DNA of 64,000 nucleotides from positions 73,303-137,302 of the forward strand of contig CACYHO010000001.1 of assembly GCA_902774285.1 (NCBI GenBank), read 5' to 3'. Below are positions 56,837 through 62,073 of this stretch, in pieces. The DNA is from an uncultured Pseudomonadota bacterium. Lineage in GTDB: Bacteria > Pseudomonadota > Alphaproteobacteria > Rs-D84. The position numbers and the translations under genes were made by a program. The notes beneath the pieces were generated by a model. It was not told the DNA's origin, did no database searches, and was given only the letters and a program-made list of their open reading frames with translations. How positions within the stretch are numbered: the first letter of the stretch is position 1; every line of letters starts with the position of its first letter.

Positions 56837-57610
56837 ATGAAAATACTTACTTTAAATATCAATTCAATTCGCGCACATATTGAAAGTTTTATGGATATTT
56901 TGCGTAAAAATGAATATGACACTATATTGGTCCAAGAATTAAAGGTTGAAAACGCCAATTTTCCATATAATTTATTGGACGAATACGGATATAATATCAA
57001 GGTTTTTGGCCAAAAATCTTGGAACGGTGTTGCAACTTTTTCAAAATATTCCATCGAAGATGTCACAATGGGCATGCCAACATACCCAGATATTAATTCA
57101 AGATTCTTGGAAAGCGTGATTGATGGTCGTGTTCGCCTGATAAATGTATATATGCCAAATGGCGATTGTATTGAATCACCAAAGTTTCCATATAAACTGG
57201 ATTGGATGCGTGCATTTACACAATATATATCACAATACATCGACAGCGAAGAACCGGTTATAATCGCCGGCGATTATAATGTAGCAGTAGAAGACCGTGA
57301 TATTTGGAATCCAAAAAATTATATTGGGTCTTCTATATCTGCACCAGCGGCACGTGATATCATGCAACAATGGTTGGATGCCGGCTGGGTTGACGCATGG
57401 CGCGAATTACACCCGGACGACATAGATTACACATGGTATGGTTATCGTGGTCGCGATACAGTCGGCAACAAACAGGGACTTCGCTTAGACTATTTCCTTT
57501 GTAATAAAACCGCAGCCAAAATGATTAAAAACTGTGAAATAGATATCGAACCAAGATTGGCCAACAAACCAACCGATCATTGTGGTTTAATGTTGGAATT
57601 AAAAGATTAA
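56837..57610 (+). CDS. xthA: Exodeoxyribonuclease III
   Basis: MKILTLNINSIRA, LVQELK, NVYMPNG, AGDYNV, WYGYRG..., LRLDYF and PTDHCGL are EEP-family Xth motifs. Confidence 0.92.
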   Translation: MKILTLNINSIRAHIESFMDILRKNEYDTILVQELKVENANFPYNLLDEYGYNIKVFGQKSWNGVATFSKYSIEDVTMGMPTYPDINSRFLESVIDGRVRLINVYMPNGDCIESPKFPYKLDWMRAFTQYISQYIDSEEPVIIAGDYNVAVEDRDIWNPKNYIGSSISAPAARDIMQQWLDAGWVDAWRELHPDDIDYTWYGYRGRDTVGNKQGLRLDYFLCNKTAAKMIKNCEIDIEPRLANKPTDHCGLMLELKD

Positions 57611-58401
57611 TCATTCAGACATTCTGGGACACTGTCATTACATATTAAATATTCAACATTGTCTATCGTCACATGAAATCCCTTTGACATACCTTCGGAC
57701 ATTTTTGGGAAAGTATTTGAATTCATATCTCGCGCAACTGCATTTGCCGAATATATACCATTAGGGTGACCAATGTATAATCTGTGTATAGTTGGATGTG
57801 CAGGTTGTTGGTGCATGTATAAAATATCTTCACCAACATGTAATTTTCGACCACATTGTGATTCCAACCACATACCAGCCGGAGCAAATGGATGGTTGCT
57901 CGGACACTCTATAAGTCCCTGTGGGGCTGTTTCGTTAAATGTAAGTTGTCCACCCGGACAATAATGGTCATTTAAGCATTTTCTACACTCGTCAATATTT
58001 GCCGGTAAATAATATCCAGGATTACAATTATGGACATTAGGTGTAAAGGTTGCGGTTATATTTGCAGAATTATTATATGCTCTTAGGAAATCGTTTTTAC
58101 AACCATTGGCTATATTTCCTGTGATTTGAACCTTGAATTTATTACCTTGGTCAACATATTCATTAAAACTGAAAGTTCCACCATTGCAATCATAAATATC
58201 AGGACACACCACACAACCATCATTATTTGCCGGAACATAATATCCGGAATTACATTGATATTGACTTGGGGTAAAGGTTGCTAATAAAAAAGTGTCATTA
58301 TTCAAACCAGAAGAACAACCATGTGGAATGTTTGACATAATCAAATCGTCCGCAAATGCGGGTATTGATATTATTAAAAAAATCAAAAATAATTTTTTCA
58401 T
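57607..58401 (-). CDS. Secreted Cys-rich protein with two internal repeats (furin/VSP/ephrin-receptor-like CxxGYY...CxxC modules)
   Basis: Signal peptide MKKLFLIFLIISIPAFA-DD. The repeats are TFTPSQYQCNSGYYVPANNDGCVVCPDIYDCNGGTFSFNE and TFTPNVHNCNPGYYLPANIDECRKCLNDHYCPGGQLTFNE. Confidence 0.7.
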   Translation of the reverse strand: MKKLFLIFLIISIPAFADDLIMSNIPHGCSSGLNNDTFLLATFTPSQYQCNSGYYVPANNDGCVVCPDIYDCNGGTFSFNEYVDQGNKFKVQITGNIANGCKNDFLRAYNNSANITATFTPNVHNCNPGYYLPANIDECRKCLNDHYCPGGQLTFNETAPQGLIECPSNHPFAPAGMWLESQCGRKLHVGEDILYMHQQPAHPTIHRLYIGHPNGIYSANAVARDMNSNTFPKMSEGMSKGFHVTIDNVEYLICNDSVPECLND

Positions 58402-58424
58402 TTTTTGTTATGTTTCCAGAACAT
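58398..58424 (-). CDS. Candidate 8-codon leader peptide (uORF) MFWKHNKK
   Basis: ATG at 58424-58422 lies 4 nt after GAGGAG. Its TGA (58400-58398) overlaps the ATG (58401-58399) of the Cys-rich gene, which has no SD of its own. Confidence 0.35.
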   Translation of the reverse strand: MFWKHNKK

Positions 58425-58547
58425 AGTTCTCCTCTGGCTAGAAGAGTACGGCGTCAGCCGAGAGGTGTCGCAATTACATAATTTATTTTTGGGCGACACC
58501 CCGTCACTTTGTGACACCCCTATAGCCAGAGGGGAACTTTTACTCCG
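58425..58547 (-). promoter_or_regulatory. G+C-rich nested-hairpin intercistronic element
   Basis: The outer 10-bp stem pairs 58431-58440 (cctctggcta) with 58523-58532 (tagccagagg). The inner 8-bp stem pairs 58464-58471 (ggtgtcgc) with 58493-58500 (gcgacacc) around a 21-nt AT-rich loop. There are small extra hairpins (gtcac ttt gtgac, cggc gtca gccg). Confidence 0.55.
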
Positions 58548-59303
58548 TCACAACACTGGGCCAGCTATAAATTGACCAGTGCCTTGGTTGTAATAAAATT
58601 TAGCTTCTACTTTGTCGAACAAACAAGGTATATTGTCTTGATCGAGAACAGGGATAAAATCACGAACAAGAGCGTCATTTTCGTAAATTTGTACAAAATA
58701 CATTTTTATTTTTGCGTATTCCATTGCACTGAATCTATTGCTCGTAGCAAACAAAAAGTAAGAGTATATTGAAGAAGGAGGACTTGTGTTTTTGCTTTCT
58801 GTTGTTCCATTGATGTTTAAGGTGAAAATATTGCTATTTTGTGTCATCTCTAGAGTATAAACTGTGTTTACAGATATTGGTGTTTCTAAAGCACCAGAAA
58901 GTGATGAATGATAAATAGAGACAAAGCCATTAGTTCTTATATATGGTATAAAATAATAACTTGGTTGAGCCCCTGCAATCGATTGACCAGCACTTACATT
59001 TGTGTATTCATATTTTATAATAACGCGGTAATTATTTTGATTTGAAAATTTAAATCCTGTATCAATATATTGTGTTCCTGTACTTTCTAAATATTCGATT
59101 GGTGTATAGTCTGACATTTTCCATCCTGTAAAAGTATAACCATATTTTGTTGGTGGGGTGGATGGGATAATTAAATCACTATCAATTACACATGTTGAAT
59201 TTTGATATGTTGTTCCGTCATAATTTTTCCAATATAAATTTATAGTATCTGCACATACCGTATTACAGAACAGTAATGATAATAATATTAAAAGCCGTTT
59301 CAT
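58548..59303 (-). CDS. Secreted protein: Listeria-Bacteroides (Flg_new) repeat plus C-terminal jelly-roll/lectin-like domain
   Basis: Signal peptide MKRLLILLSLLFCNTVCA-D. PPTKYGYTFTGWK is the Flg_new signature. EYLESTGTQYIDTGF ... LFDKVEAKFYYNQGTGQFIAGP recalls a family I have seen in phage tail-fibre-like and gut-bacterial surface proteins. Confidence 0.65.
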   Translation of the reverse strand: MKRLLILLSLLFCNTVCADTINLYWKNYDGTTYQNSTCVIDSDLIIPSTPPTKYGYTFTGWKMSDYTPIEYLESTGTQYIDTGFKFSNQNNYRVIIKYEYTNVSAGQSIAGAQPSYYFIPYIRTNGFVSIYHSSLSGALETPISVNTVYTLEMTQNSNIFTLNINGTTESKNTSPPSSIYSYFLFATSNRFSAMEYAKIKMYFVQIYENDALVRDFIPVLDQDNIPCLFDKVEAKFYYNQGTGQFIAGPVL

Positions 59304-59547
59304 TTGATGTTTTCTCCCCGAATGTTAAATAAAAAGACCGTCACAAAGGGCGGTCAGGGAGTTCCTAATCACTAAATTACTGATTCCGTGGTCTTTCAGT
59401 TTCCCGTGTTTTATAACCAACGGCTCCCCGACCATAAAGTGTCAGGGATGATAACGGTGCAAAAAACACCGATAACATCATTTTAACGATGCTTTCGCAC
59501 CGAATTTAGTGGACTAGGAAAGTCCAAAACCCAATCCCTTGGATTCA
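59304..59547 (-). promoter_or_regulatory. Long structured 5' leader (riboswitch- or attenuator-like) of the 58548-59303 gene
   Basis: On the minus strand, a 10-bp helix GGUCGGGGAG (59433-59424) / CUCCCUGACC (59361-59352) closes two hairpins (59423-59404 and 59385-59367). There is a competing upstream UCCCUGAC (59448-59441), a GACCG/CGGUC hairpin plus U-run (59355-59327), and the SD GGGGAG (59319-59314). Confidence 0.5.
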
Positions 59548-59553
59548 AAAATC

Positions 59554-59582
59554 ATTATAAAATACAGGTTATCAAATGTAAA
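59554..59582 (-). promoter_or_regulatory. Near-consensus sigma70 promoter
   Basis: Minus strand: TTTACA (59582-59577), 17-nt spacer, TATAAT (59559-59554). It starts 11 nt downstream of the addB stop. Confidence 0.55.
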
Positions 59583-59592
59583 CAGAAAAAAC

Positions 59593-62073
59593 TTAATCAT
59601 CCACGCGGGCTAAATCATCATATTCATGATATTTGGCACCAACACTGTCGCGGTATTCATATTCGGCAACTTTGTCTGTGCTGTATTGCCCGAATAATTC
59701 GCGAACCTTTTGCACAGATGTATCTATCATTTCTTGTGCAATTTCATCGCTGTATTCTATCAATTCTGGATTTCCATTTTTTAATTGTAAAAATTGTATT
59801 ATCGGTGTGATTGAAACATCGTACATTTTAAGCGGAAAACCATTGTTTTGCATTATAAATGCTTCCAATGGTAATTGTGGCATTGTGCCGTCCAATAATT
59901 GTTTTTTTGTTGGTGCAGATCCTGTTTTTATGTCCATAACCACACCGTCCCATATAATATCTGCACGCGCACGAACATTGCGCCCGGCAATATTTACTGA
60001 GCCAAGAACCTCTTTATACTTAATCGATTTATTCTTAAAGAATTCTTCGACAAACGGTGCGATTTCACAAAATCTTTTATGCCAAAAATAAAATAAAATT
60101 GAATTATCTGGTAATACTTGCTTTGCACGTATATCCATTTCATCTATTAATTTTTTCGCATTAAAATCTTTTGCGTTTTCAATTACATCATGAACCAAGA
60201 TTCCAAAATTACGTGCATCTGGCAAAACCCAATAATCATCTTTTTTGCGCAATTTCAAAATATGTTTTACATAAAATGCATACGGATTATGAATTAACAA
60301 TTCAATTTCTGTGACATAAACATCACTTTTATCAATTGGTGGTGTTGGCGCGGAATAATCAAGTGGTTTGTATGGCACATCGTCGTCCGCCCTAACCTGT
60401 TTTAAAATTTCACTATCTATTTCTATATCACCAACCGCGACACGAACACGTGAAAGAAAACGTGATTCTGTTGTTAATGTTCCGCCCATCTGTTTTGAAC
60501 GCAACCAATAGACTTCCGTCGCACAAGATAAATTCATAAAATCAAGCGCCATCAAAGATACCTTCCTATTTGGTGATGGCAATCCGATTTCGTTTGCTAT
60601 ATTACGTGGCAACCAGGCATTTTCATAACCAAGTCCCGGGAACATTCCTTCATTAAGGCCTGTTAAAATAATAACATCTGCGGTTTGCATACGCGATTCA
60701 ATTGTTCCCAATACACACACCTTGCAATCTTCATTTTTTATCGGACGTATTGATACAGAACCAATTGCATCTGCAATAAATGCACGCGCATCAAAAATAT
60801 TTAATACTATTTCGTTTGCCCTTAAAATATCTGCGGTTTCTTTTATAGCATTCCAAATTGGAATATAGCTTTCGTTTTCTATTGTGAAACTTGGTTGAAA
60901 ATTATACCCATTTTCAGAATCAACAAATGCAACCAACATATTAAATAAATTGTAATCACTTTGCGCATACAATTTTTCAAATTCTTTTTGATTATTTTCA
61001 ATCCAATCATCAAATAAATTTAATATCGCACGTCCTGTTTCACTCATTGCCCCGGACAAACCAGACGAAAAGTCTGCATCAATGCCTAACTTGGTCATTT
61101 CTGACTTGATACGCTGATTCGCAGCGGCATCTGGTGTAATAATTAAAACAGATTTATTTTCAGACACTGCACGTTTTGCAATTTGTGTTGCAGTTAACGC
61201 TTCTTCGCTTTCACGTGCACATTCAATCAATTTACAATTATTTAATTTGCTATCAACATGTTCACCAGTATTACCAAAGGCGATATTCATAATATCTATA
61301 TCACTTTTACCAACATCAATTGTTTGAACATCATCAACAGACAAACCCAACTTTTTCAAAAATAAATATTCGCTTTTGTATGGATTAGTATCCAATTCAA
61401 AATCTTTTGTTTCGCCATCAATTTTCCCAGATAAAATTATTTTACCATTTGGTATACGCGCGACATATTTCATTAAATCTGCCGTGGCCGGCACAGAAGC
61501 AGTTGATCCACAAACAATCACACAATCATATTTATCCAAATGATTTTTCCATGCACGAATATCGGCATTTCTTTTTTGTGTTGTTGTAGGTCTGTCATTT
61601 GGTAATTGTTTCAAAATATCCAAAATGCGTGCTTTATTTTGAAAATGTGTTGCATATTTATCATCTATTAATTCGGCCCAATTAACATCCGTGATTTGAA
61701 CACCTTCGTTTTCCATATAATCTTGCATACGAATAAAATCATGCGCCAAAGGCAATGCCGTCGCTATGTTTCTGACATTTGCATCCATTGATAAAAGTTT
61801 AGATAAAATAATCACGCGTTCGCGATTTGATATTGTGTCTGTGCAAACATCTTCTTCGTCTTCTGATCCTTCGCCCAATGGAACAAGGTTTGGCAAAATA
61901 ACCGCATGCCCTACTTTTTCAACAATGAATTTTTCAACACTTCGTATAGCACGACGCGATGGCAAGAAAATTAAAACACGTGAAAAATCATTGATATACT
62001 GCGCAATCTGTCCCCACAGCGCATCTAGCACACGCATGGGATTCGATACATTAAAAATATTATTATTTGACAC
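59593..62073 (-). CDS. addB: Double-strand break repair protein AddB (alphaproteobacterial type)
   Basis: N-terminal RVLIFLPSRRAIRSVEKF, a C-terminal PD-(D/E)XK nuclease (GRNVRARADIIWDGVVMDIKTGSAPTKKQL...PQLPLEA) and a DDLARV tail. Confidence 0.8.
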   Translation of the reverse strand: MSNNNIFNVSNPMRVLDALWGQIAQYINDFSRVLIFLPSRRAIRSVEKFIVEKVGHAVILPNLVPLGEGSEDEEDVCTDTISNRERVIILSKLLSMDANVRNIATALPLAHDFIRMQDYMENEGVQITDVNWAELIDDKYATHFQNKARILDILKQLPNDRPTTTQKRNADIRAWKNHLDKYDCVIVCGSTASVPATADLMKYVARIPNGKIILSGKIDGETKDFELDTNPYKSEYLFLKKLGLSVDDVQTIDVGKSDIDIMNIAFGNTGEHVDSKLNNCKLIECARESEEALTATQIAKRAVSENKSVLIITPDAAANQRIKSEMTKLGIDADFSSGLSGAMSETGRAILNLFDDWIENNQKEFEKLYAQSDYNLFNMLVAFVDSENGYNFQPSFTIENESYIPIWNAIKETADILRANEIVLNIFDARAFIADAIGSVSIRPIKNEDCKVCVLGTIESRMQTADVIILTGLNEGMFPGLGYENAWLPRNIANEIGLPSPNRKVSLMALDFMNLSCATEVYWLRSKQMGGTLTTESRFLSRVRVAVGDIEIDSEILKQVRADDDVPYKPLDYSAPTPPIDKSDVYVTEIELLIHNPYAFYVKHILKLRKKDDYWVLPDARNFGILVHDVIENAKDFNAKKLIDEMDIRAKQVLPDNSILFYFWHKRFCEIAPFVEEFFKNKSIKYKEVLGSVNIAGRNVRARADIIWDGVVMDIKTGSAPTKKQLLDGTMPQLPLEAFIMQNNGFPLKMYDVSITPIIQFLQLKNGNPELIEYSDEIAQEMIDTSVQKVRELFGQYSTDKVAEYEYRDSVGAKYHEYDDLARVDD

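Follow-up and report, generated by a model that had tools for sequence, protein, structure and literature searches.

Genomic context of the leader

A 289-nt intergenic region on the minus strand, between the end of an addB-like gene at 59593 and the start of a gene for a 251-aa signal-peptide protein at 59303, raises the question of whether the RNA made from it regulates the gene that it precedes. An initial annotation of the window (the whole 64-kb stretch of DNA analyzed here) described the region as a candidate riboswitch or attenuator: a ~245-nt leader, read from the minus strand, with mutually exclusive helices that touch a terminator-like hairpin and the ribosome-binding site (RBS). Both the strand and the length were borne out. 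The folding z-score relative to shuffled sequence was -3.8 for the minus strand versus -2.5 for the plus strand, and a near-consensus promoter (TTTACA-17-TATAAT, 11/12 matches) lies at 59582-59554, so that transcription would start near 59547 and yield a leader of ~245 nt. Across 54 homologues (described below), the -10 positions are at least 90% conserved and stand at a fixed distance from the first hairpin of the RNA, H1. The structured RNA occupies ~220 nt (59547-59326, minus strand), and its terminator lies ~20 nt ahead of the RBS. The elements that would govern expression of the gene are as follows.

59554 to 59582, minus strand: sigma-70-type promoter, with -35 TTTACA (59582-59577), a 17-nt spacer, and -10 TATAAT (59559-59554)
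59326 to 59355, minus strand: predicted intrinsic terminator, GACCGCC-CUUUGU-GACGGUC (59355-59336) and then UUUUUAUUUA, with one C.A mismatch in the window
58548 to 59319, minus strand: RBS GGGGAG (59319-59314) and gene for the 251-aa signal-peptide protein (ATG at 59303), which would depend on read-through

As first annotated, GGGGAG at 59319-59314 is the RBS of the gene whose start codon is at 59303, and GACCG (59355-59351) begins a terminator-like hairpin, GACCGCC/GACGGUC, followed by the U-run UUUUUAUUU (59335-59326). A simple terminator scan left this hairpin unflagged because its mismatch makes the loop exceed the limit of the scan. The space between the terminator (59326) and the RBS (59319) is too short for a second promoter in the window. 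The 251-aa protein itself weakly matches the Listeria-Bacteroides repeat domain (Flg_new, E = 9.5e-4, under the Pfam cut-off).

The leader belongs to an insertion of ~2 kb between addB and xth, which also carries the 251-aa gene, a G+C-rich repeat, and a gene for a 264-aa Cys-rich secreted protein. Hundreds of close relatives of the addB protein occur in gut and rumen metagenomes, and a genome scan yielded 59 loci from Candidatus Enterousia and related alphaproteobacterial metagenome-assembled genomes. At most of them, the convergent addB and xth genes abut each other. Among the 59, a related cassette occupies the addB-xth site only in L029, L004, L058, and L009; in other genomes the site holds different inserts.

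The claim that the core matches no known class also held for the window and related loci. At gathering thresholds, Rfam 15 returned no family in the whole 64-kb window and only tRNAs in six related loci, and ARAGORN found no tRNA or tmRNA in the window. Sub-threshold Rfam matches to Phe_leader (E = 4), a snoRNA, and U2 were rejected as spurious.

A multicopy family of structured leaders with two core types

Four segments of the leader recur throughout the comparisons that follow.

59441 to 59448, minus strand: X, UCCCUGAC, a C-rich decoy that duplicates X' and has Y as its partner; proposed role, anti-antiterminator
59424 to 59433, minus strand: Y, GGUCGGGGAG, the shared G-rich strand, partner of X or of X' (helix P1)
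59352 to 59361, minus strand: X', CUCCCUGACC, with three competing partners: Y (P1, the proposed antiterminator), Z, and the 3' arm of the terminator via GACC
59511 to 59529, minus strand: Z, consensus UC[G/A]GGG, degenerate in the window as UUUUGGA, a G-rich second copy of Y

When the window and 59 syntenic loci were searched with the leader by blastn, L029 was the sole match, indicating that plain sequence search was too weak; pattern searches found the family instead. When four syntenic leaders were aligned, Y and X' covaried (for example, GGUCGGGGAG and CUCCCUGACC in the window, GGUUGGAGG and CCUCCAACC in L004), and X followed Y too. The family was collected with a degenerate search pattern that covered Y, X', and the terminator but not X. 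This pattern found extra copies at other sites in L045 and L046, two genomes that are more distant, and matched at least 120 stretches in a metagenome collection. Once G+C-rich false positives had been dropped, at least 113 distinct homologues were left; their sources are Enterousia-like genomes and metagenomes from rumen, gut, and termites.

These homologues fall into two types, A (at least 56) and B (at least 57). Type A, the kind found in the window, has the core GGUYGGGGRG-CCGUUGGUUAUAAAA...GAAAGRCCRCGG-AAUCA...UGAUU-AACUCCCYGACC; the type B core reads GGUUGGAGGG-YYGYGAAUAUAUUGAAUAAGCRCRC-hairpin-AACCUCCAACC. Both types can be present on one contig (L113 and L119), and they substitute for each other at the orthologous addB-xth locus. 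Two core types at one orthologous locus would be unusual for a ligand-specific aptamer. We conclude that the window leader is one copy of a multicopy, previously uncatalogued structured RNA family of Enterousia-like gut and rumen Alphaproteobacteria. With more than 110 distinct examples, this adds a large and well-supported family to those catalogued, in an uncultured, reduced-genome, gut and rumen lineage whose gene regulation is almost uncharted.

Family copies stand directly ahead of genes. Among the matches listed, 93 copies had 400 nt or more of sequence downstream; 89 of these were followed by a same-strand open reading frame (ORF) of at least 60 aa, which began a median of 30 nt past the terminator arm. 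Of 69 downstream proteins examined among the matches listed, 16 matched the Flg_new surface repeat and ~17 matched small XRE-type helix-turn-helix families, with most of the rest having no Pfam match. Cys-rich secreted proteins also occur downstream of family copies, and a group-1 glycosyltransferase lies downstream of the copy in L047. The RNAs precede variable surface proteins and small regulators, the likeliest mediators of host or phage interaction. In the Pfam comparison of the 69 proteins, there were no metabolic or transport genes and no shared pointer to one metabolite or ion; the downstream genes are so heterogeneous that no ligand can be inferred from them.

Covariation supports a nested, terminated fold

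For covariation, 54 full-length type A leaders were aligned with MAFFT from the -10 box to the terminator. From its start, the RNA consists of H1, Z/H2, the 5' strand of a long-range helix (LR), H3, H4, X, Y, and P2 (with P2b), and then GGAAUCA, the LR 3' strand, UGAUU, a junction strand, X', the terminator, and the U-run. A second long-range helix, LR2, has its strands within H2 and the P3 region. The elements besides the four segments above are listed here.

59528 to 59545, minus strand: H1, the hairpin nearest the 5' end of the RNA, AAUCCAA-GGGA-UUGGGUU, capped by a tetraloop of GNRA type
59525-59511, minus strand: H2, hairpin GGACU-UUCCU-AGUCC, overlapping segment Z
59514 to 59520, minus strand: LR2 5' strand, UUCCUAG, in the loop and 3' side of H2; partner 59368-59362
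59503 to 59511, minus strand: LR 5' strand, CACUAAAUU, the linker after H2; partner 59378-59370
59487 to 59502, minus strand: H3, hairpin CGGUGC-GAAA-GCAUCG, GAAA loop
59447 to 59479, minus strand: H4, long hairpin GAUGUUAUCGGUGU-UUUUU-GCACCGUUAUCAUC
59386 to 59423, minus strand: P2, CCGUuGGU (59423-16) with ACCACGG (59392-86), enclosing a conserved A/U-rich internal loop
59406-59397, minus strand: P2b, hairpin CGG-GAAA-CUG, inside P2
59362 to 59385, minus strand: P3 region, conserved GGAAUCA and UGAUU; possible 5-bp P3 stem, 59385-81 with 59371-67
59378-70, minus strand: LR 3' strand, AAUUUAGUG, within the P3 region
59368-62, minus strand: LR2 3' strand, UUAGGAA, within the P3 region

The alignment strongly supports a nested fold: H3, H4, X:Y, and P2 lie inside a three-part closing stem (Z:X', LR2, and LR), and the terminator comes next. 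In this fold, 93.6% of cells were paired and 38 of 60 pairs showed double changes; sliding the partners by 1 to 3 columns lowered pairing to 40 to 48%, and none of 500 shuffles was as good. The structure is conserved and covarying (38 to 43 pairs with double changes; 0/500 shuffles), as would be expected of a riboswitch aptamer.

The two long-range helices covary very strongly. The LR 5' strand is hypervariable, each copy having its own sequence, and yet LR forms 8 to 11 bp in 52 of the 54 sequences (mean score of 8.6, versus 4.8 for mismatched partners), with all 8 pairs compensatory. LR2 forms 6 to 8 bp in 94% of the 54 sequences (6.4 versus 3.7 for mismatched partners), and its central pairs show 24 to 34 double changes each. 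Local hairpins behave similarly: all five inner pairs of H1 change on both sides (91 to 95% of cells paired), H3 is paired in 97% of cells with double changes in 4 pairs, and the inner 6 pairs of H4 are 86% paired, 5 of them with double changes, while its outer part aligns poorly. Double changes also occur in 7/7 pairs of P2 and 3/3 pairs of P2b, the latter carrying GNRA or UUCG tetraloops among homologues. The stem of the terminator, ACCGCC/GGCGGU in the family, is 97% paired and the T-run is always 3' of it; together they are the most invariant part of the family.

These data substantially redraw the three-way junction of the initial annotation. P2 has a different register, P3 is doubtful, and the large closing stem had been missed. 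The hairpin CCGU...ACGG placed at 59423-59404 is in the wrong register, since CCGUuGGU instead pairs with ACCACGG at 59392-86 with 7/7 pairs compensatory. The AAUCA/UGAUU hairpin is conserved in sequence; however, it shows essentially no covariation and competes with the strongly covarying LR and LR2. The 5' domain, the hypervariable LR and LR2, and the fourth switching segment, Z, are additions to that annotation.

Four segments with competing pairing partners

We next consider pairings that do not fit within one fold. Z pairs with the 5' half of X' (CCC[C/U]) in the terminated fold predicted by RNAalifold. At alignment columns 154 and 398, this pairing is G-C in 41 sequences and A-U in 6, with no A-C (Fisher P = 1e-6), and A at column 154 occurs solely alongside U at column 398 (6/6 cases); in the window copy, Z:X' is weak. 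The H2 stem, which overlaps Z, has double changes of its own, such as A-U at columns 157/168 in the window and a termite-gut clade. Z:X' and the H2 stem are thus each supported by covariation and are mutually incompatible.

The same conflict exists around Y. The pairing first proposed, GGUCGGGGAG (59433-59424) with CUCCCUGACC (59361-59352), is correct in its coordinates and forms P1, 10 contiguous bp with one G.U pair in the window copy. Pairing of GUCGGGGA with its second complement further upstream, UCCCUGAC (59448-59441), is likewise possible, as first described. Because P1 uses GACC of the terminator stem, it excludes X:Y, Z:X', and the full terminator. X was absent from the search pattern, and among the matches listed it is nevertheless found no more than 28 nt upstream of Y in 82% of type A and 96% of type B copies, versus 2 to 15% in control windows. 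X:Y also covaries, G-C in the window being A-U in L029, with further cases in type B and in L047.

Two comparisons bear on P1 itself. Between types, GGGGAG/CCCC in type A becomes GGAGG/CCUCC in type B without an A-C clash in at least 113 sequences; at the three variable P1 positions there are 0 A-C clashes versus ~26 expected at one position, counts that mainly reflect two clades. The second comparison comes from a relaxed search of 1.24 Mb that required full Y:X' complementarity beside a terminator and placed no constraint on the positions found to differ in L047. It returned this one extra member, from a Rickettsiales-labelled genome, with Y GGUCGGGAAG, X' CUUCCCGGCC, X UCCUGAC, and Z CCGGGA. 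In L047, the eighth position of Y carries G>A, X and X' each carry a matching C>U, and Z carries a corresponding G>A; an A>G change in X' has its counterpart in Z as U>C. This four-way change is required by a two-state model; a single fold needs two independent pair changes at equivalent positions.

Mutually exclusive helices that touch the terminator, as initially proposed, are kept in at least 113 homologues, far more than chance would give, with X' sharing ACC or GACC with the terminator stem. The competition between helices is supported by concerted changes of X, Y, X', and Z that separate type A from type B and mark L047; within type A, however, P1 shows no double changes, and its 100% pairing there is largely imposed by the search pattern. 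The single terminated fold accommodates all of the strongly covarying helices, which leaves fewer events in favor of the alternative fold: the split between types A and B, L047, H2, and a resemblance to sRNA-Xcc1 (discussed below). For the window copy, the nested terminated fold was calculated at -75.3 kcal/mol versus -70.7 kcal/mol for a nested fold with P1 forced (pseudoknots excluded), so the two calculated states are close in energy. One further competing pair did not survive. The segment CGGUCUUU is present, although at 59340-59333, one base off the position first given, and its pairing with AAAGACC scored no better for true partners than for mismatched partners.

Relationship to sRNA-Xcc1 and to known attenuators

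The closest catalogued family is sRNA-Xcc1 (RF02221), a discrete 88-nt RNA of Xanthomonas detected by Northern blotting and RACE and described as trans-acting (PMC2996969). Integron cassettes carry it ahead of symE (bioRxiv 10.1101/2025.06.18.660453), a genomic island of Xylella holds five tandem copies (PMC12189769), and APSE phages have it ahead of an ORF6N protein (bioRxiv 10.1101/2020.03.17.996009). Two type B leaders resemble it at scores under its threshold of 53 bits (L110, 34 bits; L064, 32.5 bits), the 34-bit match having E = 2e-4 in a 351-nt search. The model gave no match in the window even at E <= 10, nor in L163, L166, or six type A loci.

Type B cores align over model positions 1 to 87, a three-way junction that includes P1; type A has the same P1/P2 layout, with a P3 that lacks covariation. 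The two families share a G-rich P1 of 9 to 10 bp (GGCCGGGGG/CCCCCGGCC in sRNA-Xcc1 and GGUUGGAGG/CCUCCAACC here), a P2 hairpin whose loop (AAUAYA) is A/U-rich, a P3 hairpin, and a tail rich in C. Each is present in several copies and sits immediately ahead of small genes (XRE regulators in this family). In contrast to sRNA-Xcc1, the RNA described here starts ~115 nt upstream of P1 and adds a conserved 5' domain (H1 to H4), two long-range helices, X and Z as decoys, and a distinct hairpin as terminator. A discrete transcript of ~88 nt starting at P1 is not what its sequence predicts, as the intervening 5' domain covaries with the core. Since the junction and the position ahead of small genes are shared but the threshold score, the start at P1, and the 88-nt form are not, we do not file the window RNA under sRNA-Xcc1; it is regarded as an elaborated relative.

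Two kinds of known leader help in reading the arrangement of helices. The adenine riboswitch of pbuE/ydhL is a transcriptional ON switch in which the 3' strand of P1 is the 5' strand of the terminator. The RNA described here has the same overlap of the P1 3' strand with the terminator, a promoter-proximal leader, and an RBS just past the terminator. Unlike that riboswitch, to which neither sequence nor Rfam comparison links it, it is much larger, has two extra decoys and a closing stem that would stabilize the OFF state, and precedes nonmetabolic genes. The trp leader, the pyr/PyrR system, and SAM-I expression platforms use a series of anti-antiterminator, antiterminator, and terminator. X:Y, Y:X', and X':terminator correspond to the 1:2, 2:3, and 3:4 overlapping helices of this series; in contrast to it, the present family lacks a leader peptide or a known protein-binding motif, and its fourth segment, Z, makes for a symmetric exchange of partners, with two strands rich in G and two rich in C.

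A probable default-off attenuator and its alternatives

Taken together, the sharing of GACC between X' and the terminator and the concerted changes in X, Y, X', and Z suggest that this region acts as a terminator/antiterminator expression platform. Our preferred reading, which we consider probable though well short of certain, is that the leader is a riboswitch-like transcription attenuator, off by default, with two global folds and driven by an effector. In the OFF state, decoy X would pair with Y, while Z, the H2 loop (through LR2), and the linker after H2 (through LR) would pair with X', the junction strand after P3, and the P3 loop, respectively, in one closing stem. GACC of X' would then be free for the terminator hairpin, and polymerase would stop ~20 nt before the RBS. 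In the putative ON state, Y and X' would form the 10-bp P1, closing a P2/P3 three-way junction that resembles sRNA-Xcc1; H2 would re-form, and the variable centers of LR and LR2 could persist as pseudoknots. The terminator would thereby lose 4 of its 7 pairs, allowing transcription to enter the gene. An effector, whether small molecule, protein, or second RNA, presumably shifts the balance toward the ON state. Such a switch would be an unusually explicit natural case of strand exchange, with two decoys and a covarying clamp that persists in both states, and this explicitness would make it a good model for co-transcriptional folding.

A special case of this attenuator is a metabolite or ion riboswitch, in which the P1-P2-P3 junction and two pseudoknots would form an aptamer and the ligand would stabilize P1 to switch the gene on. 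The large, conserved, tertiary-looking architecture with its pseudoknots and GNRA/UUCG tetraloops, and the conserved junction sequences GGAAUCA, UGAUUU, and UAUAAAA/GAAAG, are consistent with an aptamer, and the direct overlap between P1 and the terminator is also a trait of known ON riboswitches. The occurrence of multiple copies per genome upstream of surface-related genes also recalls c-di-GMP riboswitches, which are found in several copies per genome and likewise precede such genes. However, metabolic and transport genes are absent downstream (69 proteins, among the matches listed), and core types A and B swap at one orthologous locus and are found together on one contig (L113 and L119). 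We consider this special case less likely than not.

The main rival to the attenuator is a stand-alone small RNA, a longer relative of sRNA-Xcc1. In this case, the terminated, nested RNA of ~220 nt would be the product, the gene would be expressed only by constitutive, leaky read-through, and the complementarity of Y to X' would be a by-product of X:Y and Z:X'. This would accord with the closest family being a discrete 88-nt RNA (PMC2996969), with all strongly covarying helices fitting one fold that includes the terminator, and with downstream genes that offer no ligand logic. It sits poorly, however, with a same-strand ORF at ~30 nt in 89 of 93 copies (among the matches listed), which leaves no room for a promoter, and the concerted changes in X, Y, X', and Z would be coincidence under a single fold. 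In addition, the H2 stem covaries and yet is incompatible with that fold, and P1 is contiguous over 10 bp and uses exactly the bases of the terminator. We consider a stand-alone RNA unlikely, although it is the rival to be taken most seriously.

Control at the level of translation only, by a thermometer or by sequestration of the RBS, would have CUCCC of X or X' mask GGGGAG, and the hairpin and U-run would be no working terminator. The RBS is indeed complementary to X', as initially noted, and the RBS type tracks the core type, GGGG being commoner in type A and GGAG in type B (14:12 versus 9:31; Fisher P = 0.016, among the matches listed). This covariation between RBS and X' is a weak trend, however, and GGGG-type sites also occur at 8 of 59 other genes in the window, while a nonfunctional terminator would be hard to square with a stem and T-run that are the most invariant part of the family. 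Translational control alone is thus highly unlikely; resemblance of the RBS to Y, with masking of the RBS by X', may instead provide a second layer of control on top of attenuation.

Least credible, to the point of being nearly dismissed, is trp-type, ribosome-mediated attenuation through a leader peptide overlapping X and Y: the 1:2/2:3/3:4 helix arrangement, a 34-codon ORF opened in the window by ATG at 59480-59478, and the weak Rfam match to Phe_leader (E = 4) would favor it, but that ATG sits inside the conserved H4 stem, an RBS-preceded ATG ORF reaching X/Y was found in 4/54 type A and 1/55 type B copies (among the matches listed), and the frames and stop positions of the candidate ORFs are not conserved.

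Returning to the attenuator, we offer one broader reading as speculation that may well prove wrong. The family could constitute a new riboswitch-like class with an aptamer of ~220 nt, built from a three-way junction and two pseudoknots, in which a four-strand swap (Z and Y exchanging X and X') would respond to a signal by turning on surface proteins, XRE regulators, and a glycosyltransferase in uncultured gut symbionts. By extension, sRNA-Xcc1 would be a minimal cis-regulatory form of such RNAs and not purely trans-acting, and the link suggests reinterpreting the small RNA of integron cassettes, phages, and the genomic islands of plant pathogens. As for phages, the sRNA-Xcc1 pattern GGCCGGRGG...CCYCCGGCC gave only G+C-rich chance matches and one tandem repeat in viral contigs. 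Viral contigs were also searched for association of the present family with phages, and they contained one match to it.

Insertions at the addB-xth junction

The junction between the convergent genes addB and xth is a hot spot for insertions. We compared the region of the window that follows the addB match with the corresponding stretch of the addB loci of Candidatus Enterousia and its relatives (L002-L060), in most of which addB and xth abut or overlap. The features of the window discussed here are as follows.

57607-59592: addB-xth insertion region
57607-58401, minus strand: second gene of the cassette, for a signal-peptide protein of 264 aa that contains repeated Cys-rich modules
58425-58540: G+C-rich palindromic repeat units, between the 251-aa and 264-aa genes

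A cassette that combines the structured RNA leader with secreted-protein coding occupies this site in the window and in L029, L004, L009, and L058. The same site holds an unrelated 257-aa open reading frame (ORF) without a Pfam match in L002 and L006, a leader with a glycosyltransferase gene in the opposite orientation in L047, and larger inserts in L019 and L049.

The 264-aa Cys-rich protein has no Pfam match and may belong to a lineage-specific surface protein family; among the matches listed, three proteins downstream of other leader copies matched Ephrin_rec_like.

The palindromic units (e.g., ccccucuggcuauagggg ... cucuucuagccagaggag, or cuccucccccggaggag...) are G+C-rich and lie in intergenic DNA that is otherwise A+T-rich. 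About 20 family members among the matches listed carry repeat units between the leader terminator and the gene, and those with units 3' of the terminator include L062, L077, L089, L096, L103, L150, L153, L116, L122, L144, L147, and L180. In appearance, these repeats suggest a small element that is mobile or REP-like, or else a second RNA motif.

The window as a whole (1-64000) is 35% G+C; searches across all 64 kb found no tRNA or tmRNA, and no Rfam family matched at threshold.

Paralogous leaders and their divergence

Two leader copies lie on one contig in several cases (L068, L071, L063/L117, and L076/L130), and contig Ga0265301_10000062 carries core types A and B together (L113 and L119); therefore, one genome has multiple paralogous leaders, possibly each with a different signal. 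The leader copy at L079:1288-1574 has nearly the same promoter as the window copy, and the genes that follow the two are homologous. The long-range helices LR and LR2 of these two leaders (59503-59520 and 59362-59378 in the window) differ wholly in sequence, each strand complementing its own partner; therefore, either LR and LR2 evolve very rapidly or recombination exchanges them. Such divergence possibly prevents mispairing among paralogous leaders.

Leaders preceding small XRE regulators

A leader subtype whose P3 hairpin reads CUAU...AUAG is reserved for XRE-type regulators of very small size. Proteins of this kind, 70 to 95 aa long, are encoded downstream of type B leaders in L045, L046, L061, L064, L065, L071, L075, L086, L099, L100, L139, L156, L164, and L178. 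The arrangement resembles that of sRNA-Xcc1, which in mobile cassettes lies ahead of symE or ORF6N, both of them small DNA-binding proteins. The sRNA-Xcc1-like pattern also caught a very G+C-rich tandem repeat of about 180 nt on a viral contig (IMGVR_UViG_2974786131_000001; L245:3600-5450), which has no relation to the leaders.
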